Positions 1 through 62,652 of a stretch of DNA of 64,000 nt are shown in pieces. The position numbers and the translations under genes are program-made. The DNA comes from an uncultured Bifidobacteriaceae bacterium (lineage in GTDB: Bacteria > Acidobacteriota > Vicinamibacteria > Vicinamibacterales > JAMQPK01), in NCBI GenBank assembly GCA_964356125.1, contig CAYHHH010000002.1:12755-76754 (forward strand). Reading direction: 5' to 3'. The notes beneath the pieces were generated by a model. That model saw only the letters and a list, made by a program, of their open reading frames with translations. It was not told the origin of the DNA and did no database searches. Positions within the stretch are counted from its first letter, which is position 1. The number at the start of each line of letters is the position of its first letter.

Positions 1-1643
1 CCTGGATTCTTCGATGCCAGGTCGTCGATGATCATGTGTGGCACCCAGGACGTCTCGCCCGTCGCCGAACGCTTCTGCTCGAACCACGCCAGGCCCCAGC
101 CATGCGCTTCGAGGCTCGCGACGACGTCGTTCAACCCGTCGCCGTTCAGATCGGCCACGCGCAGCTCGCCACCGCCCGGACTCGCACCTGCGCGCGGCCA
201 TCGGCCGAACGCGACCGGATGATAGGGCCACGGACTGTCGACTGTCGACTGTCGACTGTTGACTGTCGACTGAGCCGGATGTTCCCACCATCCGTACGGA
301 GTGACGACATCCACGCGGCCGTCACCGTTGATATCACCCGCGCCAAGACCGTGCTGCGCGGCGACGGTGTACCCGGGCCCCGAGACGGGGCGGACCGTCC
401 ATGGGGACGTCGGATCGGCGGCGTTGACCGCTGCCACCGACACCATCCCGCCGTTGAGCACAACCGCATCCGGCGCACCGTCACCGGTGACGTCGTGGAA
501 TGCCACCACTTCGGCTGTGTTGGCAAAGGCGGGATGGCGATCCCACCTGCGCAGCTCCTTTCCCGGATTCACGTACATCACGAAGCTGCGCCCTTCCGAC
601 ACGACGACGTCGGGGAATCCATCGCCTGAGTAGTCGTGCGCGATGTTCATTGCGCCAGCGGCGTACTCGGCGCCAGGGTTGAAGATCCGGCTCACGTAGA
701 TCTCTCGCGACACGCGATAGTCGGGCCCGAGGAAATAGTGCGGCCCGGCAACGACGTCGAGCACGCCATCGCGGTTCACGTCGGCGGCGGTCGCGGACCA
801 GGCGTAATAGAAGTCGTTCAGCCGCTGCAGCCGGAACGCCGCGCCCGTTTGCTCATCGGTAAACACGCGGCGTCCGAGATCTTTGGTTTCAATCGATCGG
901 TATCGGACTTCCGTCGTCCCGCCGACGTACAGTCCTACTCGGCCGTAACGCGCGACGTGATCGTCGACGCGTCCGCTCGCCACGCCGGCTTCCGGTCCGT
1001 CGTTGAGCCACGAACGCAGGATGTTGGCGTCGAGGATCGACTCGAGCGTGTTCCATTCGCCCGGCCGAAACACGTATTCCGGCGGCGTGTACGGCGACCG
1101 CTCTGGCGGGCCGCCGCGTCCGGCAGCACCCGCGCCGCGTCCAGGACCGCCACGTCCCAGACCACCACGCCCCGGACCATCGGGTGCCCCTTGAGGCTGC
1201 GGAGGTGCGAGCGCGCGGACCGTGCCGCCGCCGCGCTCGAGCGGCTCCTTCGTGCGGAGGCGTCCCTGCGCGTCGAGCGTCACGGCGAACGCGCCAGGCG
1301 TGTCGGAGATCGAGACGAACACGCCCTTGTATCCATCCGCGGTCTTCTCGAGCCGCAGCACCAAGCCGGCTTGACACCCGGCCGCGCAGCGGAACGATGC
1401 CGCCATCTGCACGTCCTGCAAGGGTTTATTGAAGAGCAGCCATCCGCCATCCGGCGAGGACGGGGTGGCAGTCACCTCGCCGTTCTGCGCCGTCCAACTG
1501 GCGGCGCCGAGCTGCTCGGTGTCGGAAAGCGACGATCCGGCGAACGTCCAGTCAGGAACGAAATTCCTGTTCGCGTGCGATGCATGTTCCGTCGCCGCGG
1601 CGCAGAGGAGGGTCATCAGGGCCAATCGGATCAGGCGAGACAT
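1..1643 (-). CDS. Exported DUF1080 (3-keto-disaccharide-hydrolase-like) + FG-GAP/VCBS repeat protein; C-terminus runs off the window start (paralogue 1 of 3)
   Basis: Absent from the ORF track because it has no stop in the window. My reverse-strand translation from ATG 1643-1641 gives MSRLIRLALMTLLCAAATEHASHANRNFVPDWTF... It stays open to nt 3 and is collinear with ORFs 27577..29550 and 29551..31626 (DINGDGRVDVV, WWEHP, GLAWFEQKR). Confidence 0.85.
   Translation of the reverse strand, partial: MSRLIRLALMTLLCAAATEHASHANRNFVPDWTFAGSSLSDTEQLGAASWTAQNGEVTATPSSPDGGWLLFNKPLQDVQMAASFRCAAGCQAGLVLRLEKTADGYKGVFVSISDTPGAFAVTLDAQGRLRTKEPLERGGGTVRALAPPQPQGAPDGPGRGGLGRGGPGRGAGAAGRGGPPERSPYTPPEYVFRPGEWNTLESILDANILRSWLNDGPEAGVASGRVDDHVARYGRVGLYVGGTTEVRYRSIETKDLGRRVFTDEQTGAAFRLQRLNDFYYAWSATAADVNRDGVLDVVAGPHYFLGPDYRVSREIYVSRIFNPGAEYAAGAMNIAHDYSGDGFPDVVVSEGRSFVMYVNPGKELRRWDRHPAFANTAEVVAFHDVTGDGAPDAVVLNGGMVSVAAVNAADPTSPWTVRPVSGPGYTVAAQHGLGAGDINGDGRVDVVTPYGWWEHPAQSTVNSRQSTVDSPWPYHPVAFGRWPRAGASPGGGELRVADLNGDGLNDVVASLEAHGWGLAWFEQKRSATGETSWVPHMIIDDLASKNP
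233..274 (-). repeat. Heptanucleotide tandem array (GACTGTC x ~6) inside the CDS; encodes AQSTVNSRQSTVDS
   Basis: Direct reading: GACTGTC GACTGTC GACTGTC GACTGTT GACTGTC GACTGAG. It is in frame on the minus strand, between WWEHP and PWPYHP. Confidence 0.9.
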
Positions 1644-1708
1644 GTCAGGTCCCTTAAATTATCGATAACTTGGGTGAGCGGCGAGTATAGGATCGTCTCG
1701 CCCGGTAA

Positions 1709-1781: not shown

Positions 1782-4109
1782 ATGTTCCAGAACACTCGGC
1801 GGTTCCGCCAGTCGCTCGTCGTCATCCTCGGGCTATCGGCCGGGATGGCCGCGGTCGCGACCGGTCTCGCGCAGTCGTCCACGGGCAAGTGGTGGACGGG
1901 ATACGGCAACGGCCCCGATAACTCGCGCTATTTCGCATCCCGGCAGATCAACAAATCCAACGTCAGTCAGCTGCAGGTGGCGTGGACCTACCCCTATGGC
2001 GACACGAGCGGCAACCCGCTCGTCGTCCGCGGCGTGATCTACGGCCGGGGCCGCAACGGCTCCATCGTCGCTGTTGACGCGAAAAATGGCAAGGAGTTGT
2101 GGGTCCGCGAGAACATGAACGGCATGAGCAGCCGCGGCATGATGTACTGGGAAAGCCGCGACGGCCGCGATCAGCGCCTGATCTTCCCGATGAACAGCCT
2201 GCTGCAGCAGCTGGACGCGAAGACAGGGAAGTCGGTCATGTCGTTCGGCATCAACGGAGCCGTCGACTTGAGGGTGGGCATCGACGGACGCGACCCGGAA
2301 ACGATCGGGAATATCCAGTCGCAGACTCCCGGTGAAGTGTTCGAGAACCTGATCATTGTCGGCAGCGCCCCGGGTGAAGGCTACATGTCGCCGCCGGGCG
2401 ACATTCGCGCCTACGACGCCCTCACCGGCAAGCTCGTCTGGACCTTCCACACGGTCCCGCGTCCAGGCGAGTTCGGCTACGAAACGTGGCCGAAAGACGC
2501 GTGGAAGTACGTCGGCGGCACCAACAACTGGGGCGAAATGACGGTCGACACCCGCCGCGGGATCGCATACGTCCCGCTCGGATCAGCCACTTACGACTAT
2601 TACGGCGCCGACCGCATCGGCGCCAACCTGTTCGGCTCGTCGATCGTGGCGCTCAATGCGCGCACAGGCACGCGTCTGTGGCACTTTCAGATGGCCCACC
2701 ACGATCTCTGGGACTTCGACAACAATGCTGCGCCGCAACTGACGACGATCCGCCACAACGGACGCAATCGGGATGTCGTCGCCGTGGCCGGCAAGACCGG
2801 CTGGCTCTACGTATTCGATCGCGTAACGGGCGAGCCGATTTGGCCAATTGAAGAGCGGCCGGTACCCCAGACCGACATGCCGGGCGAACAGACCTGGCCC
2901 ACGCAGCCGTACCCGACCAATCCGCCGCCCTTTGCGAAGCAATCGTTCGGCGTTGACGACATTAATCCGTACCTCGAACCGGCTGAGTACGAGGCATTCA
3001 AGAAACGCGTGCTCGCCGCGAACAACAAAGGGCTGTTCACGCCGATCAACCATACCGACACCGTTCACATTCCAGGCAGCAACGGCGGCGCGCTGTTCGG
3101 CGGCACCGCAGCAGAGCCGAATACCGGTGCTGTGTACGTGATCACTCAGGACAATCCTGGCATGCTCCGCCTCCTCACAACCGCCGAGATGGCGGCGCGC
3201 GCCGGCGGCTTCGGGCCGCCCGGTCAGCTCGTCTACCAGCAGCACTGCCAGCAGTGTCACGGTGCAGATCGTCTCGGAACAGGTGACGGCGTGCCGCTTG
3301 TCTACGCGGACGCCGATCCGGCGAACAATATTGCCGCCGGCGCGTCGCGTTTCAGTGCGGTGGCGATCCGCGACATTCTCGAGACAGGCCGGGGCCGCAT
3401 GCCTGCGTTCCCGCATCTCAGCGCCGCCGACGCGGACATCCTGATCAGGTATCTCACCGCGGTGCCGGGCCCGGGGCGCGGTGCCGGTGGGGGATTCGGC
3501 CGCGGCGCAGGACCGGTCGCATCGGGCGCGCCACCCGCGCTGATTGCCGGATCCGGTTCCGTGTGGACGCGTCCGGACCCTCCAGGTGGACGCGGCCGCG
3601 GCGCCCCGCCGCCGTATCCCGAAGGGGTTCCTCAAACCGAGCGGTTCGTGATCAACGAATACGGAACGATCGGCGACCGCATGAAGCCGCCGTTCACGAC
3701 GATCGTCAAATACGACTTGAACGTACCCGCCATCAAGTGGCGCATCGGTTTCGGCGACGACCCTGCGCTCATCGGCCGTGGCGTCACGGGTACGGGCGTC
3801 ACTCAGATGCGCACCAGCATCATCGTCACGGAATCGGGTCTTGTCTTCGGCGCCGGGCGCGATAACCACATTCGCGCGTGGGACAGCGACACGGGCGCCC
3901 AACTTTGGTCGTCGCGGTTTGGCGGCAATTTCTTGGGCTCCCCAGCGATGTACGAGATGGACGGCAAGCAGTATCTGCTGGTGCCTGCCGCGAGCACGGC
4001 AGGCGGCCGGGGCGCCGGTGCTGGCGTGCCGCCGACACCAGGCGGGAGCCCGGCGACCGCTCCTCCCGCGCCCGGGCCGATGGGCTGGGTCGCCTACGCG
4101 GTGCCATGA
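1782..4109 (+). CDS. PQQ-type beta-propeller dehydrogenase (glucose/quinate-like) with an internally inserted cytochrome c domain
   Basis: 775-aa ORF with GAAGGAG upstream. Signal-like N-terminus MFQNTRRFRQSLVVILGLSAGMAAVATGLAQS. Quinoprotein N-terminal signature WTGYGNGPDNSRYFASRQINKSNVSQLQVAWTY. CQQCH at codons 489-493 (nt 3246-3260). Propeller-like blades resume after the heme domain. Confidence 0.85.
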   Translation: MFQNTRRFRQSLVVILGLSAGMAAVATGLAQSSTGKWWTGYGNGPDNSRYFASRQINKSNVSQLQVAWTYPYGDTSGNPLVVRGVIYGRGRNGSIVAVDAKNGKELWVRENMNGMSSRGMMYWESRDGRDQRLIFPMNSLLQQLDAKTGKSVMSFGINGAVDLRVGIDGRDPETIGNIQSQTPGEVFENLIIVGSAPGEGYMSPPGDIRAYDALTGKLVWTFHTVPRPGEFGYETWPKDAWKYVGGTNNWGEMTVDTRRGIAYVPLGSATYDYYGADRIGANLFGSSIVALNARTGTRLWHFQMAHHDLWDFDNNAAPQLTTIRHNGRNRDVVAVAGKTGWLYVFDRVTGEPIWPIEERPVPQTDMPGEQTWPTQPYPTNPPPFAKQSFGVDDINPYLEPAEYEAFKKRVLAANNKGLFTPINHTDTVHIPGSNGGALFGGTAAEPNTGAVYVITQDNPGMLRLLTTAEMAARAGGFGPPGQLVYQQHCQQCHGADRLGTGDGVPLVYADADPANNIAAGASRFSAVAIRDILETGRGRMPAFPHLSAADADILIRYLTAVPGPGRGAGGGFGRGAGPVASGAPPALIAGSGSVWTRPDPPGGRGRGAPPPYPEGVPQTERFVINEYGTIGDRMKPPFTTIVKYDLNVPAIKWRIGFGDDPALIGRGVTGTGVTQMRTSIIVTESGLVFGAGRDNHIRAWDSDTGAQLWSSRFGGNFLGSPAMYEMDGKQYLLVPAASTAGGRGAGAGVPPTPGGSPATAPPAPGPMGWVAYAVP

Positions 4110-4179
4110 AACGCCGTCGCTGTCGCTGGTGATGCGGCGCGGCTGACGCCGGAGCGCTGATACGGCGCCGGAGTGCCCG

Positions 4180-4196
4180 CACGGACGTCGTCCGTG
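4180..4196 (+). terminator. Candidate stem-loop CACGGAC-GTC-GTCCGTG downstream of the PQQ gene
   Basis: Perfect 7-bp stem with a 3-nt loop, 71 nt after the stop at 4109. No clear U-tract follows. Confidence 0.3.
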
Positions 4197-4212
4197 TCCA
4201 AATTTGTCTCAA

Positions 4213-4230
4213 ATCAGGGTTTTCCCTGAT
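4213..4230 (+). terminator. Candidate stem-loop ATCAGGG-TTTT-CCCTGAT
   Basis: Perfect 7-bp stem with a 4-nt loop. Its function (terminator or operator) is undetermined. Confidence 0.25.
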
Positions 4231-4254
4231 GGTATCGTCCGTGCCGATCACCAC

Positions 4255-4270
4255 CGATTATCGATTATCG
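4255..4270 (+). promoter_or_regulatory. (CGATTAT)2 tandem heptamer; shares the 12-mer TATCGATTATCG with 24409-24420
   Basis: CGATTATCGATTATCG lies 27 nt upstream of ATG 4297. The same 12-mer occurs upstream of gene 24483. Related ATTATCGAT elements occur at 1658-1667 and 11297-11303 (reverse complement). Confidence 0.35.
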
Positions 4271-4296
4271 TTTGACGCTCAGGAGCAGGAGGAGCC

Positions 4297-4473
4297 ATGA
4301 GACACCTTCGTCCGCGCGCCTACGCCTTGTTGATAGCAGCATTACTGTTCAACGTGACCGCGACCGAACTGGCGCCGGCCGAAATTCGGAGTCTCGAGAA
4401 ACTCCAGCACAGGCTTGGCCAGCTGGCGACGCCGCCGCGACAGATCGGCATCACGCTCCGGCTGGACTTCTAA
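4297..4473 (+). CDS. Small (58 aa) putative secreted protein
   Basis: Below the track's size cutoff. ATG is preceded by AGGAGCAGGAGGAG (SD). Translation: MRHLRPRAYALLIAALLFNVTATELAPAEIRSLEKLQHRLGQLATPPRQIGITLRLDF, ending in TAA, with a signal-like N-terminus. The track ORF 4272..4484 is in a different frame and Arg/Ser-rich. Confidence 0.4.
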   Translation: MRHLRPRAYALLIAALLFNVTATELAPAEIRSLEKLQHRLGQLATPPRQIGITLRLDF

Positions 4474-4476
4474 TTA

Positions 4477-4551
4477 GCTGGTAGCTGGTAGCCCGTAGCT
4501 GGTAGCAAGAGCTTTCGCTACCGGCTACCGGCTACCGCCTACCGCCTACCG
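4477..4551 (+). repeat. Long imperfect hairpin built from heptamer repeats: (GCTGGTA)x4, 10-nt loop, (GCTACCG/CCTACCG)x5
   Basis: Manual pairing 4475-4506 with 4517-4548 gives about 30 pairs, including 3 G-U and 3 mismatches. The 3' arm ends 3 nt before ATG 4555. Confidence 0.85.
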
Positions 4552-4554
4552 ACT

Positions 4555-6174
<1,620 letters not shown>

Positions 6175-6178
6175 CGGG

Positions 6179-11343: not shown

Positions 11344-11360
11344 TTGGGACAAGTTGTGAC
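11344..11360 (+). promoter_or_regulatory. Candidate direct-repeat operator TTGGGAC-AAG-TTGTGAC
   Basis: 16/17 identical (19/20 with flank) to the reverse-strand site at 36099-36083. Lies 55 nt upstream of ATG 11416. Confidence 0.45.
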
Positions 11361-11415
11361 ACGCCGCGGCGACGGGTTCTCGCGCGACGGATTCGCGGTA
11401 ATCTCGCGTGACTTT

Positions 11416-13062
11416 ATGAGTTCATTTGGCCGACGCTCGTTCCTCTCCGGCCTGGGCAAGGCCGGGGCAGTGCTCGCCGCCAGTCCGTGGCTCAGCCCGA
11501 TCGGGTACGCACAGGTCAGCAGGGGGCCTGCGCGCGTGTTCCTCCGGCGATCGGCGACGCGCCCCGACTTCGATCGCCGGGTGCTCGGCGCGTTTCTCGA
11601 ACATCTCGGCCGTGCCGTCTACACCGGAGTGTTCGAGCCCGGGTCGCCTCTTGCTGATGCAAGCGGATTTCGCACCGACGTGGCGCGCGAGGTCAAGGAG
11701 CTCGGGGTGCCCGTCGTTCGCTATCCCGGAGGCAACTTCGTCTCCGGATATAACTGGCTCGATGGCGTCGGACCCAAGGCGAATCGTCCCGTGGTGCTCG
11801 AGCGCGCCTGGAATTCGATCGAGACAAACCAGTTCGGCACGAACGAGTTCATCGACTGGTGCCGCGCGGTCGGCACCGAGCCGCTGCTCGGACTCAACTT
11901 CGGTACCGGTACGGCCGAGATGGCGGTCGCTTACGTCGAGTACTGCAATGTGGAGCGCGGCACCAGGTGGAGCGATCTACGCCGCGCACACGGCTACGCC
12001 GAGCCGCACAACGTGCGCTACTGGTGTCTCGGCAACGAGATGGACGGCCCATGGCAGATCGGCCAGATGCAGGCGCGCGAGTACGGACGCAAGGCCCGCG
12101 ACGTCGCGCAGCAGATGCGGGCGATCGACCGCGAACTGAAGCTGCTCGCGTGCGGATCGAGCGGCACGTTCATGCCGACCTATCTGGCGTGGGATCGTGA
12201 AGTGCTCGAAGAGTGCTACGACCAGGTTGACGGCATCTCGCTTCACGCCTATTACGGCAACACGAACGCGTTGACCGGCAACAACACGGCGCGGTACCTG
12301 GCGATGAACCTCGACATGGATCGCCACATTCACGAGACGGCCGCGGTCTGCGACTACGTCCAGGGACTGAAACGGTCGAGCAAACGCCTGTGGCTGTCGT
12401 TCGACGAGTGGAACGTGTGGTACCGCGCGCGCGGCCGGGATGCCACCGACGGCCGCCGCACTGAGGCGCCGAAACTGCTCGAGGAGGTGTACAACCTCGA
12501 GGACGCGCTCCTGGTCGGCGGTCTCATCAACACCCTGCTCCGCAACTCGGACCGCGTGCACGTCGGTTGTCTGGCGCAGCTCGTCAACGTGATTGCGCCG
12601 CTGGTCACCAACTCGAGCGGCGTGCTGCGCCAGAGCACGTACTTCCCGTATGCGTGGGCGCTTCGTTACGCCCGCGGCCGCGTGCTCGATTTCCGCGTGG
12701 AGTCGGAGACCTATCCGATCAGAGCGGCCGGATTACAGGCCGACTTCGCGCGCAACGCAGACGTCCCGTTCGTCGATATCGTCGCCACGCTGGATGAGCA
12801 GAATGGCCAGGCGTGCGTCCTGATGCTCAATCGCGATCTCGACGCGGAACGCGAGGTGGTGCTCGAGTGGGACGACGTCACGCCGGCGCGCGTGCTCGCG
12901 TGCGAGACGTTGACCGGACCAGACCTGAAAGCGTTCAACACGTTCGACGAGCCGCGGCGCGTCGCGCCGCAGCCACTGGCTCCGCCCGCGCCTGGCAGCC
13001 GGATGTCGTTCAGGCTGCCTCCGCGTTCGTACAGCGTCGCGCACCTGAGCCTGAAAGCCTGA
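11416..13062 (+). CDS. abfA: GH51 alpha-L-arabinofuranosidase with Tat-type signal
   Basis: Motifs RYPGGNFVSGYNWLDGVGP, ETNQFGTNEF and WCLGNEMDGPWQIG (GH51 acid/base region). Start moved to the internal ATG 11416, giving MSSFGRRSFLSGLGKAGAVLAASPWL. Confidence 0.85.
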   Translation: MSSFGRRSFLSGLGKAGAVLAASPWLSPIGYAQVSRGPARVFLRRSATRPDFDRRVLGAFLEHLGRAVYTGVFEPGSPLADASGFRTDVAREVKELGVPVVRYPGGNFVSGYNWLDGVGPKANRPVVLERAWNSIETNQFGTNEFIDWCRAVGTEPLLGLNFGTGTAEMAVAYVEYCNVERGTRWSDLRRAHGYAEPHNVRYWCLGNEMDGPWQIGQMQAREYGRKARDVAQQMRAIDRELKLLACGSSGTFMPTYLAWDREVLEECYDQVDGISLHAYYGNTNALTGNNTARYLAMNLDMDRHIHETAAVCDYVQGLKRSSKRLWLSFDEWNVWYRARGRDATDGRRTEAPKLLEEVYNLEDALLVGGLINTLLRNSDRVHVGCLAQLVNVIAPLVTNSSGVLRQSTYFPYAWALRYARGRVLDFRVESETYPIRAAGLQADFARNADVPFVDIVATLDEQNGQACVLMLNRDLDAEREVVLEWDDVTPARVLACETLTGPDLKAFNTFDEPRRVAPQPLAPPAPGSRMSFRLPPRSYSVAHLSLKA

Positions 13063-25652: not shown

Positions 25653-27602
25653 ATGAAGACATCAAAGCATCGCGCGCTGAGCGCAGTCGTGTACGCGTCG
25701 GTCCTCTTCGCGACGAGCGCGTTCGCGCAATCCGAGAGCGCCGGCGTGAATCAGTACTTCAACAACTGCGCCTCGTGCCATGAGAGCAACGAGCCAGGAC
25801 ATCAGGCGCCGTCCACCGCCGTGCTCAAGCGGATGACGCCTGAACGGATTCTCGAAGTGATGACGACCGGCTCGATGCGAACCGCCGCCGCCGCCGTCAG
25901 CGACCAGGACAAGCGCCTCATCGCGGAATGGGTGGCCGGGCGGAAGCTCGACACCGATCTGGTTGGCGCCGCCGAGAAGATGTCGAACGTCTGTGCCAGT
26001 CATGCGCCGGTGCGCGAATCGAACACGCCGGCATGGAACGGCTGGGGTGTTGATTACCGGAACTCGCGCTTCCAATCGGGCGCGGCCGCCGGCTTGTCTC
26101 CCGGACAAGTGTCGCGCCTGCAGCTGAAGTGGGCCTTCGGATTTCCGGGCGCCACGGCGCTGTACGGCCAGACGGTGTATGACGGACGGCTGTATGTGAC
26201 GTCCAATGCCGGGTACGTCTACTCGCTCGACGCCGAGACCGGCTGTCTGCACTGGGGGTTCCGCGCGCAATCGGCGGTGAGGAGCGGGTTCACGATTGGC
26301 CGCCTCAGCAAGACCGATCCGCGGCTCGCCATTTTCTTCGGCGATATTCATGGCACGGCATACGCACTGTCGGCAAGCACCGGCGAGGAGATCTGGAAGA
26401 CGCTTACCGATCCGCATCCGCTCGCTCGGATTACCGGAACGCCGGTGCTGTTCGAGGGACGGCTGTTGGTGCCGGTCGCCTCGCTCGAAGAGCCGGAGTC
26501 GGGACAGGCCGATTACGCGTGTTGCACCTTCCGCGGGTACATGTCGGCGTTGGATTCGGCAACCGGCCGTCAGATCTGGAAGACATACACGATTCCGGAC
26601 GTGCCGAAGGTCGTTGGCAAGAACTCGCGCGGCAAAAACATGCTGGAGCCGGCCGGCGCCGGCGTCTGGGCGACGCCGACGATCGACGTGAAACGCCGCG
26701 CTCTGTACGTGACCACCGGCAACGCCTTCTCGGGCACGCCCAAAACAGCCAACGCCGTGATGGCGATGAACATCGACACGGGCAAAGTACTGTGGTCGAT
26801 GCAGGCGCTCCCATTCGATACGTGGCACAACGGCTGTGTGCAGAACATTCCCGGTGGAGCATTTCCCGCTCGGAGTGGCGGCGGCGGACGTGGCGGCCGC
26901 GCCGGCGGACCTGGCATTCCCTATCCGCCTGAAAACTGCCCCGCGGTGCTCGGACCCGACTGGGACTTTGCAGCGCCTCCGGCGCTCGCGACAACCAGCG
27001 ACGGCCGGGACATTCTCATCGCGCCGCAGAAGCAGGGGCTCGTGTGGGCCGTCAATCCGGAAAACGGCCAGGTATTGTGGAAGCAGGATGTGGCGCGCGA
27101 AATCGCCGGCGGCCGCGGAGAGACGCTCTTCGGCGCTGCGGTAGACAGCGAGAAAGCCTACTTCGGTCTGATCAGCAGCGCGCACCTCGCGCTCGATCTC
27201 AAGACTGGGGAAGAGGTCTGGTACGTACCACTGATTCCGCCACCGGGCCGTGAGAACCAGCGCGGGGTCGTCGGCGCCGTCACGCTGATTCCCGGCGTGC
27301 TCTTATCGGGCGCGCGCGATGGGATGATTCGCGCGGCGTCGTCGCGAACCGGTCAACTCCTGTGGCAGTTCGACAGTGCGCAGGAATTCACGACCGTCAA
27401 TGGCGTGCAGGCGCGCGGTGGTTCCGCCGCCTCCGGCGGCCCCATCGTCGCGAACGGGATGGTGTTCATCGGCTCGGGCTATCCCGGCTTCCAGGGGGGA
27501 CAGCCCGGAAATGTGCTGCTTGCCTTCGCGCCGGCGGTGCGGCTCGACGTGCATGCCGACGAGTTGAAGCGGAAAGCTAGCGACGCCGACCCCAGAAAAT
27601 GA
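25653..27602 (+). CDS. Quinohemoprotein-like dehydrogenase: N-terminal cytochrome c domain + PQQ-type beta-propeller (PVA-dehydrogenase-like layout)
   Basis: 649 aa with signal MKTSKHRALSAVVYASVLFATSAFAQ. CASCH heme motif near the N-terminus. Repeated propeller blades (LYVTSNAGYVYSLDAETG, GMVFIGSGYPG). Confidence 0.8.
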   Translation: MKTSKHRALSAVVYASVLFATSAFAQSESAGVNQYFNNCASCHESNEPGHQAPSTAVLKRMTPERILEVMTTGSMRTAAAAVSDQDKRLIAEWVAGRKLDTDLVGAAEKMSNVCASHAPVRESNTPAWNGWGVDYRNSRFQSGAAAGLSPGQVSRLQLKWAFGFPGATALYGQTVYDGRLYVTSNAGYVYSLDAETGCLHWGFRAQSAVRSGFTIGRLSKTDPRLAIFFGDIHGTAYALSASTGEEIWKTLTDPHPLARITGTPVLFEGRLLVPVASLEEPESGQADYACCTFRGYMSALDSATGRQIWKTYTIPDVPKVVGKNSRGKNMLEPAGAGVWATPTIDVKRRALYVTTGNAFSGTPKTANAVMAMNIDTGKVLWSMQALPFDTWHNGCVQNIPGGAFPARSGGGGRGGRAGGPGIPYPPENCPAVLGPDWDFAAPPALATTSDGRDILIAPQKQGLVWAVNPENGQVLWKQDVAREIAGGRGETLFGAAVDSEKAYFGLISSAHLALDLKTGEEVWYVPLIPPPGRENQRGVVGAVTLIPGVLLSGARDGMIRAASSRTGQLLWQFDSAQEFTTVNGVQARGGSAASGGPIVANGMVFIGSGYPGFQGGQPGNVLLAFAPAVRLDVHADELKRKASDADPRK

Positions 27603-29550
27603 ACGTGCCGCGCACGCTCGACGTGACGATGTCCATCGCGCCGTCTTTGTTGAGGTCCGCCGCCGAGAATTGCGAGCCGACGCCAGACCGATTGTGAATC
27701 AGCTCGGGCACGAACTCCGCGCCGCCCGGCGCCTTCCGATTTCGCACGGTGCGAAACCAATACAGCGCCGGAGTGCCGTAAGGATCGGGGTCGGTATAGC
27801 TCTCCAGGTGGGAAAAGTAACGCTTGCCCGTGACGTAGTCAGTTACCCCGTCGCCGTCGATGTCGGCTGCCAGCGACGCGTGCATTTCCGACAGCGTCAC
27901 GTTGCCGGCGTTCTTCGTCGAGTAGTCGTCGATGATCATGTGCCGCTCGAACGAGATGCGCCCATCCGTGTCGCGTTTCTGCTCGAACCACGCCAGGCCG
28001 AATCCGTGAGCGTTCAGCCCGGTGACCACATCGTTGAGCGTGTCGCCGTTGACGTCATACACGCAGAGCTCGGCGCCTCCGGCGCCCTCCGCTCGGCCCC
28101 ACCGCCCGAACGCCTCGGGATGGTAGATCCACGCTTCAGACTCTGGACTCTGGACTGTCGACTCTGGACTTTGGACTTTCGACTTTGGACTAGCCGAAGG
28201 CTGTTCCCACCAGCCAGCCGTCTGGAGAATGTCCACGCGCCCGTCGCCGTTGATGTCGCCGGCACCCAGGCTGTGACCGTATGCCATTCCCGGCGCCGAA
28301 ATCGTGTGCACCACCCACGGGCGAGTTGGATCGGCAGGATCCGGCTGCGCGTACGCCAGCGTTCCCTTCGCCGTGCCGGTGCCGGTCCCGAAGATCGCTT
28401 CGGGCTTACCGTCGCCGTCCACATCCCGCATGAGCACCAGCTCGCTGTTGCCCTGCGGCACAGCCGGGTACTTCGCCCAGCGCCGGCGCTCGCCTTTCGG
28501 ATTCACGTACATAAATAAAGGACGGTTCTCGCCGGACACGACGTCGGGCCAGCCGTCGCCGGTGAAGTCGAAGACGAAGTGAAACCCGGCGCGCGGAAAC
28601 TGATCGCTCGGATTGACAGTCGGCGCGACATAGATCTCGCGTCGCGACGTGTACTCGGGCCCCAGGTAGTAGTACGGGCCAGCGACGACGTCGAGGACGC
28701 CGTCGCGGTTGAGATCACCGACGCCGGCGCCCCAGGTGTAGAAGAATTCGTCGAGCTGCTGCATGCGGAACCGTGTGGATGTCTGCTCGGGTGGTACGAC
28801 CCGCACGTTGAGATCTTTGAATGAGACGTCCTTGAAGTGCACCTCGCCGCTGCCCACGAAGAGCGCGACGGGCCCGTAGCCGCTGGCGCGGTCGTCGGTC
28901 GTTGCAGCGGGAATGTCGACCCCCTGATTCAGCGTCGATCGAATGATATCGGCGTCGAGCGCGACACTCAGCGTGTTCCACTCGCCCGCGCGCGGGCCGG
29001 GCTGCGGAGGCATCAGCGGAGCGAGCGGTACAGGCAAGGTCATCGCCGGACCGCCCGTGCCCGCGCCGCCGCGCGCTGGACCACCGCTCCGGGCACCTGC
29101 CGCAGGCGGCGGTGGCGCGGAGCGGATGAACGCCGCCACGCCGCGCAGCGGTTCGCGCGCCGTCTCGCGGCCTGCCGCGTCGAGCGTGACGCGAAATGCC
29201 GCGAGCTCACCGGCATTGAGCGCGAGATACACGCCGGTCATACCCTCAGCGGTTTTTTCGGCGCGGAAGAGCACCCCTGTGCGGCACTCCCCGGCGCAAC
29301 GGAACCGCGTGAAGAAGTTCAGATCCTGATACGACGCATCGAGCACGAGCCAGCCGCCGCCGGGGCCCGACGCGGTTCCGATCAGCTCGCCGTTCTGTGC
29401 CTTCCACTGTGAGGAGCCGAGCGTATGCCAGCCGGCGAGCGTGGACCCGCTGAAGGTCGAATCCGGCCGGAAATCATGTGCCGGTCCCTGCGCGCCGATC
29501 CACGCGGCGGCCAGTGTCACGGCGGCGACGATGACGACTAGTCGTCTCAT
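27577..29550 (-). CDS. Exported DUF1080 + FG-GAP/VCBS repeat protein (paralogue 2)
   Basis: 657 aa with signal MRRLVVIVAAVTLAAAWIGAQ. DUF1080-like LAGWHTLGSSQWKAQNGELIG...GVLFRAEK. FG-GAP-like DINGDGRVD and DVNGDTLND. Its ATG directly abuts the stop of the upstream paralogue. Confidence 0.9.
   Translation of the reverse strand: MRRLVVIVAAVTLAAAWIGAQGPAHDFRPDSTFSGSTLAGWHTLGSSQWKAQNGELIGTASGPGGGWLVLDASYQDLNFFTRFRCAGECRTGVLFRAEKTAEGMTGVYLALNAGELAAFRVTLDAAGRETAREPLRGVAAFIRSAPPPPAAGARSGGPARGGAGTGGPAMTLPVPLAPLMPPQPGPRAGEWNTLSVALDADIIRSTLNQGVDIPAATTDDRASGYGPVALFVGSGEVHFKDVSFKDLNVRVVPPEQTSTRFRMQQLDEFFYTWGAGVGDLNRDGVLDVVAGPYYYLGPEYTSRREIYVAPTVNPSDQFPRAGFHFVFDFTGDGWPDVVSGENRPLFMYVNPKGERRRWAKYPAVPQGNSELVLMRDVDGDGKPEAIFGTGTGTAKGTLAYAQPDPADPTRPWVVHTISAPGMAYGHSLGAGDINGDGRVDILQTAGWWEQPSASPKSKVQSPESTVQSPESEAWIYHPEAFGRWGRAEGAGGAELCVYDVNGDTLNDVVTGLNAHGFGLAWFEQKRDTDGRISFERHMIIDDYSTKNAGNVTLSEMHASLAADIDGDGVTDYVTGKRYFSHLESYTDPDPYGTPALYWFRTVRNRKAPGGAEFVPELIHNRSGVGSQFSAADLNKDGAMDIVTSSVRGTFIFWGRRR
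28139..28194 (-). repeat. Heptanucleotide tandem array (GACTCTG/GACTGTC/GACTTTG x ~8) inside the CDS
   Basis: Direct reading with unit boundaries 28139, 28146, 28153, 28160, 28167, 28174, 28181 and 28188. Encodes SPKSKVQSPESTVQSPESE between WWEQP and WIYHP. Confidence 0.9.
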
Positions 29551-50909: not shown

Positions 50910-50958
50910 GTAGGGCTCGTTCGTAGGGCTCGTTCGTAGGGCTCAACTTAAGTTGAGC
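50910..50958. repeat. 13-mer tandem repeat (GTAGGGCTCGTTC x2 + GTAGGGCTCAAC) merging into a perfect 18-bp palindrome GCTCAACTTAAGTTGAGC (50941-50958)
   Basis: Direct reading and a reverse-complement check. Intergenic, between the IclR gene and the small ORF/MFS gene. Confidence 0.85.
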
Positions 50959-50988
50959 ACTACCGCATGAGCACTACCCGGAGGCGCC

Positions 50989-52442: not shown

Positions 52443-54194
52443 ATGAACACGCGGTTCTGGGTTCTTGGTTCGGCGGTTCTGGGGTCCTGGTTCTGGGTTC
52501 ATGGTGCGAGTGTGTTCGCACAACTCGGTCCGGCGCGGGCCCGCACGCAAACGGCCGCGTACGAGTTGACCGATGGCCGCACGATCGAGGGCATCCCTCT
52601 CAATCACGAGCGCGCCGACGATGTGCAGCTGCGCACGGCGGCGGGCCCGGTTCTCCTGCTCAGGAAATCGGGCGATCGGTATCGCGTGGTCACCTCCACG
52701 GTCGACTGGCCGAGCTACGACGGCTCGACAACCGGTAATCGCTATACCGCGCTGACCCGGATCGACAAATCGAATGTCGGACGGCTGGCGCCCAGGTGGA
52801 TCTACGCGATACCGACATCAGTGCGTCTGCAAACGACGCCGGTGGTCGTGGGCGGCTTGATGTATGTCACCAGCGCCAACGAATGCTATGCGCTCGACGC
52901 CGGCAACGGCCGCGAGGTCTGGCGCTTTCAGCGGCCGCGCACGAAAGGCCTCGTCGGCAACGCGGCCGGCGGTATCAATCGCGGCGTTGCGATCGCGGGC
53001 GAGCGTCTGTTCATGGTCACCGACCACGCGCATCTGATCGCGCTGAATCGGTTTACGGGCGAGCTGCTGTGGGACATGGTGATGGCCGACTGGCAGCAGA
53101 ACTACAACGCCACGTCGGCGCCCTTGATTGTCGGAGATTTGGTGATCGCCGGCACCGCCGGCGGCGAGCAGGGCGTGCGCGGGTTTCTCGCGGCCTACGA
53201 TCAGGCGACCGGACGCGAAGCGTGGCGATTCTGGACGGTGCCGAAGCCAGGTGAACCTGGATCGGAAACATGGAAGGGCACAGGCATCGAACATCCGGGC
53301 GGCGTCACCTGGATGACCGGCGTGTACGATCCAGCGCTCGACCTCGTCTACTGGACGACCGGCAATCCCAGTCCGGATTACAACGGCGACGAGCGATTGG
53401 GCGACAATCTGTACGCGAGCTCGGTCGTCGCGCTCGATGCGCGCAGCGGCCGCTTGAAGTGGCACTTCCAGTTCACGCCACACAACGTGTGGGATTGGGA
53501 CGCACAGCAGCCCACCGTGCTCGTCGATACGACATGGGAAGGGCGCCCGCGAAAGCTTCTTGTTCAGGCGAGCCGCAACGGGTTCTTCTACGTGCTCGAC
53601 CGCACCGACGGGAAATTTCTGCTCGCGAAGCCGTTCGTCAACAACCTGACCTGGGCGCGCGAAATCGGATCGGGCGGCCGGCCGGTGCTGGTGCCGGGGC
53701 AGGAGCCCAGTCCCGAAGGCACGCGCGTCTGTCCGTCGGCGCACGGCGCGGCGAACTGGTACTCGACGTCATACAGCCCGCAGACCGGGCTGTATTACGT
53801 GCAGACCCTCGAGAACTGCAATGTGTTCGTCAAGTTCGTCAGCGAATGGGCCGCGGGAAACGCGTACTGGGGCGGCTCCACGCGGCAGGCCGAAGATGCA
53901 CCGAATCAGAAAATTCTTCGCGCCATCGACGTGAAGACCGGGAAGATCGCGTGGGAACTGCCGCAGACGGGCCCCGGGGCCGCGCGCGGCGGAACGCTGG
54001 CCACGGCGAGCGGCCTGCTGTTCTTCTGCGACGACCAGGATCGATTTGCCGCCGTCGACGCGGCAACCGGAAAACCGCTCTGGCAATTCGGGATGAACAG
54101 CGTGTGGCGGGCGTCACCGATGACGTACGAGTTCGACGGAAGGCAGCACATCGCCATCGCATCGGGGTCGAACATCATCGCGTTTGGTTTGTGA
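52443..54194 (+). CDS. PQQ-type quinoprotein alcohol-dehydrogenase-family beta-propeller (no heme domain)
   Basis: 583 aa. NRYTALTRIDKSNVGRLAPRWIY..LQTTPVVVGGLMYVTSANECYALDAGNGREVWRF and later blades are typical of the methanol/ethanol DH family. The N-terminal hydrophobic core is encoded by a heptamer array. Confidence 0.85.
   Translation: MNTRFWVLGSAVLGSWFWVHGASVFAQLGPARARTQTAAYELTDGRTIEGIPLNHERADDVQLRTAAGPVLLLRKSGDRYRVVTSTVDWPSYDGSTTGNRYTALTRIDKSNVGRLAPRWIYAIPTSVRLQTTPVVVGGLMYVTSANECYALDAGNGREVWRFQRPRTKGLVGNAAGGINRGVAIAGERLFMVTDHAHLIALNRFTGELLWDMVMADWQQNYNATSAPLIVGDLVIAGTAGGEQGVRGFLAAYDQATGREAWRFWTVPKPGEPGSETWKGTGIEHPGGVTWMTGVYDPALDLVYWTTGNPSPDYNGDERLGDNLYASSVVALDARSGRLKWHFQFTPHNVWDWDAQQPTVLVDTTWEGRPRKLLVQASRNGFFYVLDRTDGKFLLAKPFVNNLTWAREIGSGGRPVLVPGQEPSPEGTRVCPSAHGAANWYSTSYSPQTGLYYVQTLENCNVFVKFVSEWAAGNAYWGGSTRQAEDAPNQKILRAIDVKTGKIAWELPQTGPGAARGGTLATASGLLFFCDDQDRFAAVDAATGKPLWQFGMNSVWRASPMTYEFDGRQHIAIASGSNIIAFGL
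52453..52509 (+). repeat. Heptanucleotide tandem array (GGTTCTG x ~8, one 1-nt interruption)
   Basis: GGTTCTG GGTTCTT GGTTCGG c GGTTCTG GGGTCCT GGTTCTG GGTTCAT GGTGCGA. It lies within codons 4-23 of ORF 52443. Confidence 0.9.
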
Positions 54195-62603: not shown

Positions 62604-62652
62604 AAGGGGCAAGGGACAAGGGGCAATCATTGCCCCTTGCCCCTTACCCCTT
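62604..62652. terminator. Strong hairpin built from heptamer repeats: (AAGGGGC AAGGGAC AAGGGGC)AA-TCA-TT(GCCCCTT GCCCCTT ACCCCTT), between convergent genes
   Basis: Manual pairing 62604-62626 with 62630-62652 gives 23 positions with 2 mismatches and a 3-nt loop. It starts 2 nt after stop 62602 and ends 25 nt before stop 62677. Confidence 0.6.

Follow-up and report, generated by a model that had tools for sequence, protein, structure and literature searches.

Heptanucleotide repeats are described, in the citations of Mrazek (2007) given by PMC4679880 and PMC4692102, as the most abundant class of long simple sequence repeats in many prokaryotes. Here we analyzed an inverted pair of heptamer arrays in a 64-kb stretch of DNA (hereafter the window) from contig CAYHHH010000002.1 of an uncultured bacterium assigned to Acidobacteriota. 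The two arrays form a hairpin between the stop codon of a 58-codon open reading frame (ORF) and the start codon of a lactate permease gene. A preliminary description, made from the letters of this DNA, had regarded the hairpin as a translational control element, an attenuator or an mRNA-stability element. Comparison with related loci and contigs (designated L001, L086, L221 and so on) indicates that it is probably not a purpose-built permease switch, because it belongs to a rapidly changing repeat family, one copy of which has recently overwritten an older stem-loop here.

In Xanthomonas campestris and X. axonopodis, 70-75 convergent (GGGAATC)n pairs have been described, about 90% of which are intergenic, and they are transcribed (Rehm et al. 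2015, PMC4692102). Like the element studied here, these pairs consist of opposed 7-nucleotide (nt) arrays capable of forming a stem-loop, sit nearer the ORF upstream of them and seldom separate divergent genes; close relatives differ in array length and sequence but keep the single or paired type (PMC4692102). Apart from the phylum, the difference is that Xanthomonas uses one G-rich, quadruplex-prone unit throughout the genome, whereas here the units vary by locus, a palindromic centre is conserved and elements are present or absent at two sites. GCTGGTA contains no G-runs, and the other arrays of the window are built from GACTGTC, GACTCTG, GGTTCTG and GGGGCAA.

Short tandemly repeated repetitive (STRR) heptamers of cyanobacteria are likewise 7-bp tandem units in intergenic regions, and one forms a hairpin between the co-transcribed genes hupS and hupL, for which mRNA stability, translational coupling or termination were proposed and none was proven (PMC2670836). 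They have their own units (CCCCAGT and others) and occur in low-GC filamentous cyanobacteria; moreover, few arrays are paired in Nostoc (PMC4692102), compared with 30% in the GC-rich contigs listed below. The TAACTGA direct heptamers of marine Beggiatoaceae and cyanobacteria, for which a role in translation has only been suggested (MacGregor 2015, PMC4679880), form arrays in 5' leaders, the commonest class ending 1 nt before the start codon, and their unit stops the forward frames while leaving the reverse ones open. These are direct repeats of one unit, with a single inverted set in 170, in contrast to the inverted pair here.

Two further kinds of hairpin are pertinent. Intrinsic terminators share with the element a GC-rich stem-loop directly after a stop codon; here, however, there is no U-tract, the stem has 29 pairs, the loop has 10 nt and a start codon follows 6 nt on. 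Repetitive extragenic palindromic (REP) elements act as 3'-exonuclease barriers or weak terminators. The REP sequence between malE and malF of Escherichia coli stabilises the upstream mRNA. REP elements, bacterial interspersed mosaic elements (BIMEs) and REP doublets forming hairpins (REPINs; PMC3116915) resemble the present element in being dispersed, intergenic, imperfect palindromes that often follow stop codons or lie within operons and vary between strains. They differ in measuring 20-40 bp, having a genome-wide consensus and being associated with a REP-associated tyrosine transposase (RAYT) gene, whereas the structure here is a stem-loop of about 75 nt (helix span 74 nt) built from 7-nt units, with no second copy in 64 kb of a partial genome. 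Our literature search found no paper on heptamer palindromes in Acidobacteria.

Structure of the hairpin

The features at this site are as follows (coordinates of the window).

4297..4473, plus strand: 58-codon ORF with a strong Shine-Dalgarno (SD) sequence, GGAGGAG; a deletion relic of a gene for an outer-membrane protein (OMP) resembling TonB receptors
4475..4548, plus strand: predicted helix (RNAfold) of 29 pairs, comprising 26 Watson-Crick and 3 G-U pairs, with three 1x1 mismatches
4477..4506, plus strand: left arm, GCTGGTA GCTGGTA GCCCGTA GCTGGTA GC
4507..4516, plus strand: centre, a 10-nt loop, AAGAGCTTTC
4517..4551, plus strand: right arm, (GCTACCG)x3 (CCTACCG)x2, followed by ACT and ATG 4555
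4555..6174, plus strand: lactate permease of the LctP family (Pfam PF02652, E = 1.7e-139)

Tandem Repeats Finder reports a period of seven for both arms (4475-4506 with 4.6 copies and 4517-4555 with 5.6 copies), that is, head-to-tail units in at least three copies, and the two complementary arrays are convergent, close together and capable of forming a stem-loop. The left arm had been read as four GCTGGTA units; the periodicity holds, but the third unit, GCCCGTA, differs at two bases. The repeats themselves do begin 4 nt after the ORF stop and end 3 nt before the permease ATG, as first described, whereas the helix begins 1 nt after the stop codon (TAA, 4471-4473) and finishes 6 nt before the ATG. 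The two-unit 16-mer occurs five times within the hairpin, against 0.24 matches expected across the window; neither the unit pair nor the centre recurs elsewhere in the 64 kb. TAG stops are present in all three plus-strand frames of the left arm.

The plus-strand RNA has a minimum free energy (MFE) of -47.8 kcal/mol with one dominant fold, whose centroid equals the MFE structure, and none of 200 shuffles equalled its stability (z = -6.2/-5.6); the proposed hairpin of heptamer repeats abutting the permease start is therefore real, and it withstands the shuffled control suggested for it. The hairpin is not an assembly artefact, since three independent assemblies (L082, L083 and L085) read through an identical sequence; two other contigs (L081 and L084) break inside it, and the portions covered there are identical too.

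About 30 paired positions had been counted, with three G-U pairs forming only in the plus sense. The numbers are close to the predicted 29 and three, but the minus-sense RNA folds in a shifted register with -49.4 kcal/mol and is as stable as the plus sense, so the strand is not selected. The three G-U pairs count as one event, because every left unit has T where the right unit needs C, a single arm-to-arm difference multiplied by the array. The choice of a strand from the G-U pairs was dropped, as the antisense strand folds equally well. Of 13 hairpins whose upstream gene could be assigned, eight were more stable in the sense strand and five in the antisense strand, the mean difference being about -3.8 kcal/mol.

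The earlier view that this is not a simple terminator stands. There is no U-tract after the stem, where the sequence reads ACUAUGACUUGG / CCGACUAUGACUUGG, and the terminator scan gave no terminator-like site at 4470-4560; the element thus lacks the short GC-rich stem directly before a U-tract that characterises intrinsic terminators. An Rfam search of 3900-4800 matched the hairpin only below threshold to generic microRNA precursor models, and these hits were discarded as meaningless. No alternative antiterminator-type structure was seen in folding of the hairpin, and its features are not those of an attenuator or riboswitch, since there is one fold, the preceding ORF is an OMP relic and the element is missing from orthologous leaders.

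Recent replacement and a widespread family

The permease is 98% identical at the amino acid (aa) level and 96.3% at the nt level to its closest relative, in L221 (codon differences: 45 synonymous and 13 non-synonymous), and no heptamer hairpin occurs in the 125 nt upstream of the L221 permease. That region instead contains the right half of a conventional hairpin, a spacer of about 105-107 nt and the native sequence ...CATACCGACT-ATG. The heptamer hairpin is also missing before the permease in the 96% identical relatives L208-L211. In L208-L211, L207 and L086, a GC-rich hairpin of -38 to -43 kcal/mol stands right after the homologous stop (...LRLDF*), and a comparison of only three sequences shows four main-stem pairs with both partners changed, which is covariation. 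As L221 and the 96% relatives hold the conventional hairpin, the element has replaced an older conserved stem-loop and its spacer very recently, and it is about as stable as the hairpin it displaced.

The right junction lies in native sequence: the last right-arm unit merges into TACCGACT-ATG, which is found also in the element-free L221 and resembles the element's own end, TACCAGCTA. With this likeness, microhomology and local seeding are indistinguishable. Local growth agrees with the native TACCG seed at this junction and with the resemblance of the centre CTTTCGC to the old loop CCTTCGC. Growth purely in situ from the TACCG seed is weakened by the occurrence of the same centre at another site in sister strains, and we kept it only for the right junction.

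That other site lies behind the permease gene.

6175..6178: empty "site B", 4 nt separating the stop codons of the permease gene and a convergent TonB-receptor gene

Site B is empty in the window, L213 and L217, with 3-4 nt between both stop codons, and filled in L208-L211; filled and empty states differ as CGG-GCT-[element]-GCT-A. The L209/L211 hairpin reads TCA GCTGGTA GGCGGTA GGCGGTA GTTGGTA GC AAGAGCTTT GC TACCACC..., and the centre in the window equals the L209/L211 centre (GGTAGCAAGAGCTTTGCTACC) save for a 1-nt indel, with a looser match in L137. The other alleles, in L208 and L210, have 5/6 and 4/4 units around the centres GCAAAACTTTTGC and GCAAAAACGTTTGC. These four strains encode the same permease protein from genes differing by 3-20 synonymous nt (3 nt between L209 and L210), with no difference in the flanking 300 nt upstream and 380 nt downstream. 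The family core is GGTAGC-AAGAGCTTT-GCTACC, with units GNNGGTA in one arm and TACCNNC in the other; further relatives come from other metagenomes (L137, L185), and all start with nnAGCTGGTAG and end with GCTAn. Copy number and sequence change rapidly, as seen in the three site B alleles, the absence from L221 and the different copy numbers of an array in L002 and L003, and the arms change symmetrically between alleles (L208 versus L210). Presence or absence at two sites, hypervariable alleles and arms that change in step point to copying from site to site in addition to slippage by 7 nt.

Heptamer repeats are a widespread class in these genomes. Tandem runs in the window and related acidobacterial loci (about 1 Mb) comprise 22 of period 7, seven of period 6, four of period 9 and none of periods 5 and 8. 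The unit differs from locus to locus, and opposed-array hairpins also occur in L003, L011 and L008. A metagenome scan for two GCTGGTA units matched at least 120 contigs. Among the matches listed, 25 of 84 arrays (30%) in GC-rich contigs (at least 58% GC) were paired, i.e. had a complementary array within 110 nt, compared with 2 of 124 in the control and 0 of 40 in low-GC contigs. The same listed GC-rich contigs contain 60 further period-7 arrays away from the seed arrays, with many units and several of them paired, compared with all arrays of other periods (2 of period 5, 31 of period 6, 9 of period 8, 16 of period 9, 9 of period 10 and 4 of period 11).

Arrays turn up in all kinds of intergenic setting: some follow a stop codon and precede a separate canonical terminator (L091, L170, L186 and L189), some come directly before start codons (L093, L105, L119 and L160) and some separate cistrons (L159 and L164). 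Several hairpins occupy short stop-to-start spacers of codirectional genes. By a crude ORF and strand call based on GC at third codon positions, which left 58 of 133 elements without assignment, the 27 hairpin pairs comprise 12 between codirectional, 11 between convergent and 4 between divergent genes, and the single arrays 34, 9 and 5, respectively. The window itself has a second hairpin, whose similarity of build had been pointed out before and is confirmed.

62604..62652: heptamer hairpin with the unit GGGGCAA/TTGCCCC, between convergent genes and immediately after an OMP gene stop; -37.2 kcal/mol in the plus and -46.9 kcal/mol in the minus sense

Several other repeats were observed. In the window, (GACTGTC)n at 233-272 and (GACTCTG)n at 28139-28191 lie inside the minus-strand paralogues 3..1658 and 27577..29550 (3-keto-disaccharide hydrolase plus FG-GAP), where they are in frame and encode an insert of 13-18 aa in the same loop, flanked by GWWE(H/Q)P and W(P/I)YHP; thus, 7-nt repeats also build protein segments. 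The array (GGTTCTG)n at 52453-52500 forms the signal-peptide-coding start (MNTRFWVLGSAVLGSWFWVHGASVFAQ) of ORF 52443-54194, a pyrroloquinoline quinone (PQQ) dehydrogenase paralogue. At 50910-50965, a perfect 13-nt tandem (GTAGGGCTCGTTC, 2.7 copies) runs into a palindrome tagged GTAG...CTAC (GTAGGGCTCAACTTAAGTTGAGCACTAC) just before ATG 50967, which gives it a REP-like look. Orthologous leaders of two Blastocatellia metagenome-assembled genomes (MAGs), L002 173-259 and L003 5287-5313, hold (ACCGACA)-type arrays of 13 versus 4 copies just before the SD sequence. A different, BIME-like repeat occurs upstream of the permease in L001 (about 5830-5950), with four tandem 28-nt units containing the hairpin GCGGATTGCAAATCCGC.

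The relic, its promoter region and the permease start

The 58-codon ORF is what deletion has left of an OMP gene, because the full-length gene is present in L208-L211 and remnants of differing size occur in the window, L086 and L207. The full-length counterpart, located upstream of the permease, encodes a 1057-aa beta-barrel (PF25183) ending in TPPRYIGLTLRLDF, of which the window relic retains the signal peptide and the last beta-strand, TPPRQIGITLRLDF. The ORF has no Pfam match, and its sole homologue, in L086, has only a signal-peptide-like N-terminus and the C-terminus TPPRQIGITLRLDF in common with it. Judged from the alignments, the relic has retained its promoter region, SD sequence and original stop codon. 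The L086 relic is in frame too, that of L207 has neither SD sequence nor ATG, and the chance of two in-frame relics is about 1 in 9. A small conserved protein and a leader peptide were both considered for this ORF and dropped, as it is explained as an OMP gene relic.

Some observations on L086 concern the same region. The last approximately 46 nt of the relic (4426-4473 versus L086 655-702) are near-identical DNA, with one difference plus the stop codon, while the remainder of the relic region is about 70% identical, and no explanation tried accounts for this contrast. Directly before the conserved promoter region of its relic, L086 has a PQQ dehydrogenase gene (2-394) truncated at about residue 350 of 775. 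The gene after its relic is a 55% homologue of the window gene 11344-13062, in place of the permease. The neighbourhood is heavily rearranged around the hairpins.

The region upstream of the relic is conserved in L086 and L207.

4201..4270, plus strand: region aligned with L086 and L207, containing AATTTGTCTCAAAT, the extended -10-like motif TGnTATCnT and the near-palindrome CGATTATCGATTATCG

It is a probable promoter or operator that would feed transcription into the hairpin and the permease, and its motifs are unique within the window. The near-palindrome (4255-4270; about 472-487 in L086) is a perfect palindrome in L207 (CGATTATCGATAATCG) and stands between the putative promoter and the SD sequence; it is operator-like and recalls the GATAAT hexamers of Fur boxes, which would be in keeping with iron regulation of a TonB receptor. 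At 4214-4231 there is also a perfect 7-4-7 palindrome, ATCAGGGTTTTCCCTGAT, which is not conserved in L086. A sigma-70 promoter scan gave nothing in 4000-4700, and the only terminator-like site in the same interval is at 4183-4199, after the PQQ dehydrogenase gene.

The permease has no SD sequence before ATG 4555, nor is there space for a promoter between the hairpin and this ATG; on both points the sequence and the sigma-70 scan agree with the preliminary description. ATG 4555 is the true start, because homologues align from residue 1, and a downstream start codon, which would have undermined the whole arrangement, is thereby excluded. The closest named relatives of the permease are in Blastocatellia MAGs (80-81%) and Vicinamibacterales (75%). 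Distant orthologues have clear SD sequences, while all close relatives are without one, whatever their upstream sequence. In relatives of 88-89% identity, an MFS-SGL-arabinofuranosidase operon with spacers of 10-40 nt ends with the permease gene; dependence on upstream transcription, and hence read-through of the hairpin, is therefore plausible. As both the SD-less start and this dependence are common to relatives that have no hairpin, they are traits of the lineage.

Folding did not support the claim that the stem occludes the initiation region. In ensemble predictions, opening -18..+13 around the AUG costs 6.4-6.5 kcal/mol in the window, compared with 5.2-13.3 kcal/mol in relatives without the element and 6.2-21.1 kcal/mol for eight other window genes. 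In constraint folds with a ribosome placed on the relic stop codon, the cost falls only to 5.3 kcal/mol. The opening cost is unexceptional, so that neither a special block nor coupling is indicated by folding at equilibrium; the idea that a ribosome helps to open the start was dropped because almost nothing is gained (6.4 to 5.3 kcal/mol).

Explanations and meaning

The explanation that we favour, with moderate confidence, is a REP-like palindrome of heptamer repeats that serves as a generic intercistronic or 3'-end stem-loop and is read through. The element is a fast-evolving palindromic repeat whose arms of 7-nt units surround a conserved centre; such repeats grow and shrink in 7-nt steps and would reach new hairpin-prone intergenic sites either through local growth or by copying (template switching or gene conversion between copies, or some form of transposition). 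One of them has here taken the place of the older GC-rich stem-loop and spacer behind the OMP stop codon, the OMP gene having decayed to a relic that keeps its promoter region, SD sequence and original stop. Transcripts from the relic promoter would then cross the element to reach the SD-less permease, and the RNA of the element, a stem-loop of -48 kcal/mol without a U-tract, would mark or protect the 3' end of the upstream cistron with partial read-through. It would do the same job as the stem-loop it replaced and as REP-type intercistronic hairpins, and would sense nothing. A dedicated translational switch or attenuator, as once proposed, does not fit with the absence of the element from L221 and the 96% relatives, the lineage-wide lack of the SD sequence, the relic nature of the ORF and the generic repeat class.

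Several points weigh against this explanation. Hairpin read-through, a role as RNA barrier or partial terminator, the copying mechanism and even permease expression are inferred. A kinetic effect on initiation, beyond equilibrium folding, is possible with the helix only 6 nt from the AUG, and the ancestral spacer between hairpin and AUG was longer, about 25-35 nt (approximately 25 in L207 and 30 in L208-L211) and about 105-107 nt in L221, compared with 6 nt in the window. Copy-and-paste rests on a shared centre of 9-21 nt and on presence or absence at two sites, local growth on the TACCG seed and the likeness of the centre to the old loop, and neither body of evidence is decisive; only 64 kb of the genome were seen, and they hold no second copy of the centre. 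The orientation counts carry the crudeness of the strand call, and the element could be entirely neutral.

Neutrality is the main rival, in our estimate unlikely and yet far from negligible. The hairpin would be a by-product of 7-nt replication slippage and quasi-palindrome correction with no selected effect, and the permease would simply tolerate the loss of its spacer. The hypervariable alleles among near-identical strains and the absence from the closest relative are what such a process would leave, as are the arrays found in all settings, coding loops and a signal peptide among them; STRR and Xanthomonas repeats have been given no established function after decades (PMC2670836, PMC4692102). 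Yet a stable stem is always kept though units and copy number change, with symmetric arms (L208 versus L210), the element occupies the exact position of a covarying hairpin in relatives, and few hairpin pairs (4 of 27) separate divergent genes.

Translational control or coupling, in which the start is hidden and ribosomes finishing the 58-codon ORF open the base of the helix and pass by termination-reinitiation to the SD-less AUG, is improbable. The geometry is suggestive, with UAA 1 nt before and AUG 6 nt after the helix, and so are the relic's strong SD sequence, ATG and original stop, the in-frame relic of L086 and the missing SD sequence of the permease. However, the opening cost is no higher than in relatives or other genes and hardly changes with a ribosome in place; the L207 relic has neither SD sequence nor ATG and the permease there is SD-less all the same; the arrangement is missing in the 98% relative; and two in-frame relics are not a rare outcome by chance.

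Movement of a REP/REPIN-type element by a RAYT acting on single-stranded DNA hairpins is quite improbable. The element is palindromic and intergenic, varies in its presence at two sites among close relatives, and carries GTAG/CTAC, the tag of many REP families (PMC3733652), in every unit, although a tag at the stem foot is inseparable from the repeat itself; a G-T wobble asymmetry of the same direction in several family members and the GTAG-tagged palindrome at 50910-50965 are in line with this possibility. Nevertheless, tblastn with a Y1_Tnp protein in the window and 1.68 Mb of loci found no RAYT/Y1 transposase other than its own source at one unrelated locus (L219/L220), the stem is 2-3 times the length of a REP, other heptamer hairpins have units without GTAG (GGGGCAA, CAACTCC and AGAGTTG) and the window has no second centre. 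The L219/L220 gene (362-715) is of the IS200/RAYT type (PF01797) and precedes the permease gene of the 81% relative by about 3.3 kb.

An efficient terminator, at which transcription from the relic promoter ends and which leaves the permease silent or nearly so, is very improbable, despite a very stable GC-rich stem directly after a stop codon, the lack of a visible downstream promoter and the enrichment of hairpin pairs between convergent genes (11 of 27). The missing U-tract (ACUAUGACUUGG) and the empty terminator scan at the site stand against it, as do the intact permease ORF with mostly synonymous differences and the similar hairpins in short codirectional spacers. In addition, the four arrays that precede separate canonical terminators suggest that arrays themselves do not terminate. 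Action on the DNA itself, whether as a cruciform, as a protein-binding array of the iteron kind or as a phase-variable switch of the promoter region, is hardly credible: the palindrome can fold on either strand and copy number at site B differs between strains, but the hairpin is identical in the three spanning assemblies and in the covered parts of the two broken contigs, lies between stop and start codon outside the promoter and has no known protein partner.

A bolder version of the favoured explanation would make the hairpins a self-propagating class of palindromic repeats of soil Acidobacteriota, which spread by matched 7-nt extension of the arms and by copying between stem-loop sites through a hairpin-acting activity, as opposed to arising passively by slippage. 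Genes of near-identical strains would thereby have their 3'-end and intercistronic stem-loops exchanged, and one stem-loop would here have moved to the 5' side of the permease, the relic being kept perhaps to deliver ribosomes to the SD-less start. We consider this version rather unlikely.

For annotation, the locus warns against taking a striking 75-nt hairpin for a riboregulator just because it touches a start codon; it was the comparison with strains of 96-98% identity that exposed its recent arrival and generic class. Palindromes built of heptamer repeats, until now described from Xanthomonas and cyanobacteria, also abound in uncultured, GC-rich bacteria of soil that are of Acidobacteriota type. 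They differ between strains with near-identical flanking genes, which makes them useful for telling strains apart and frequently responsible for breaks in assemblies, and they are able to supplant conserved terminator-like hairpins.

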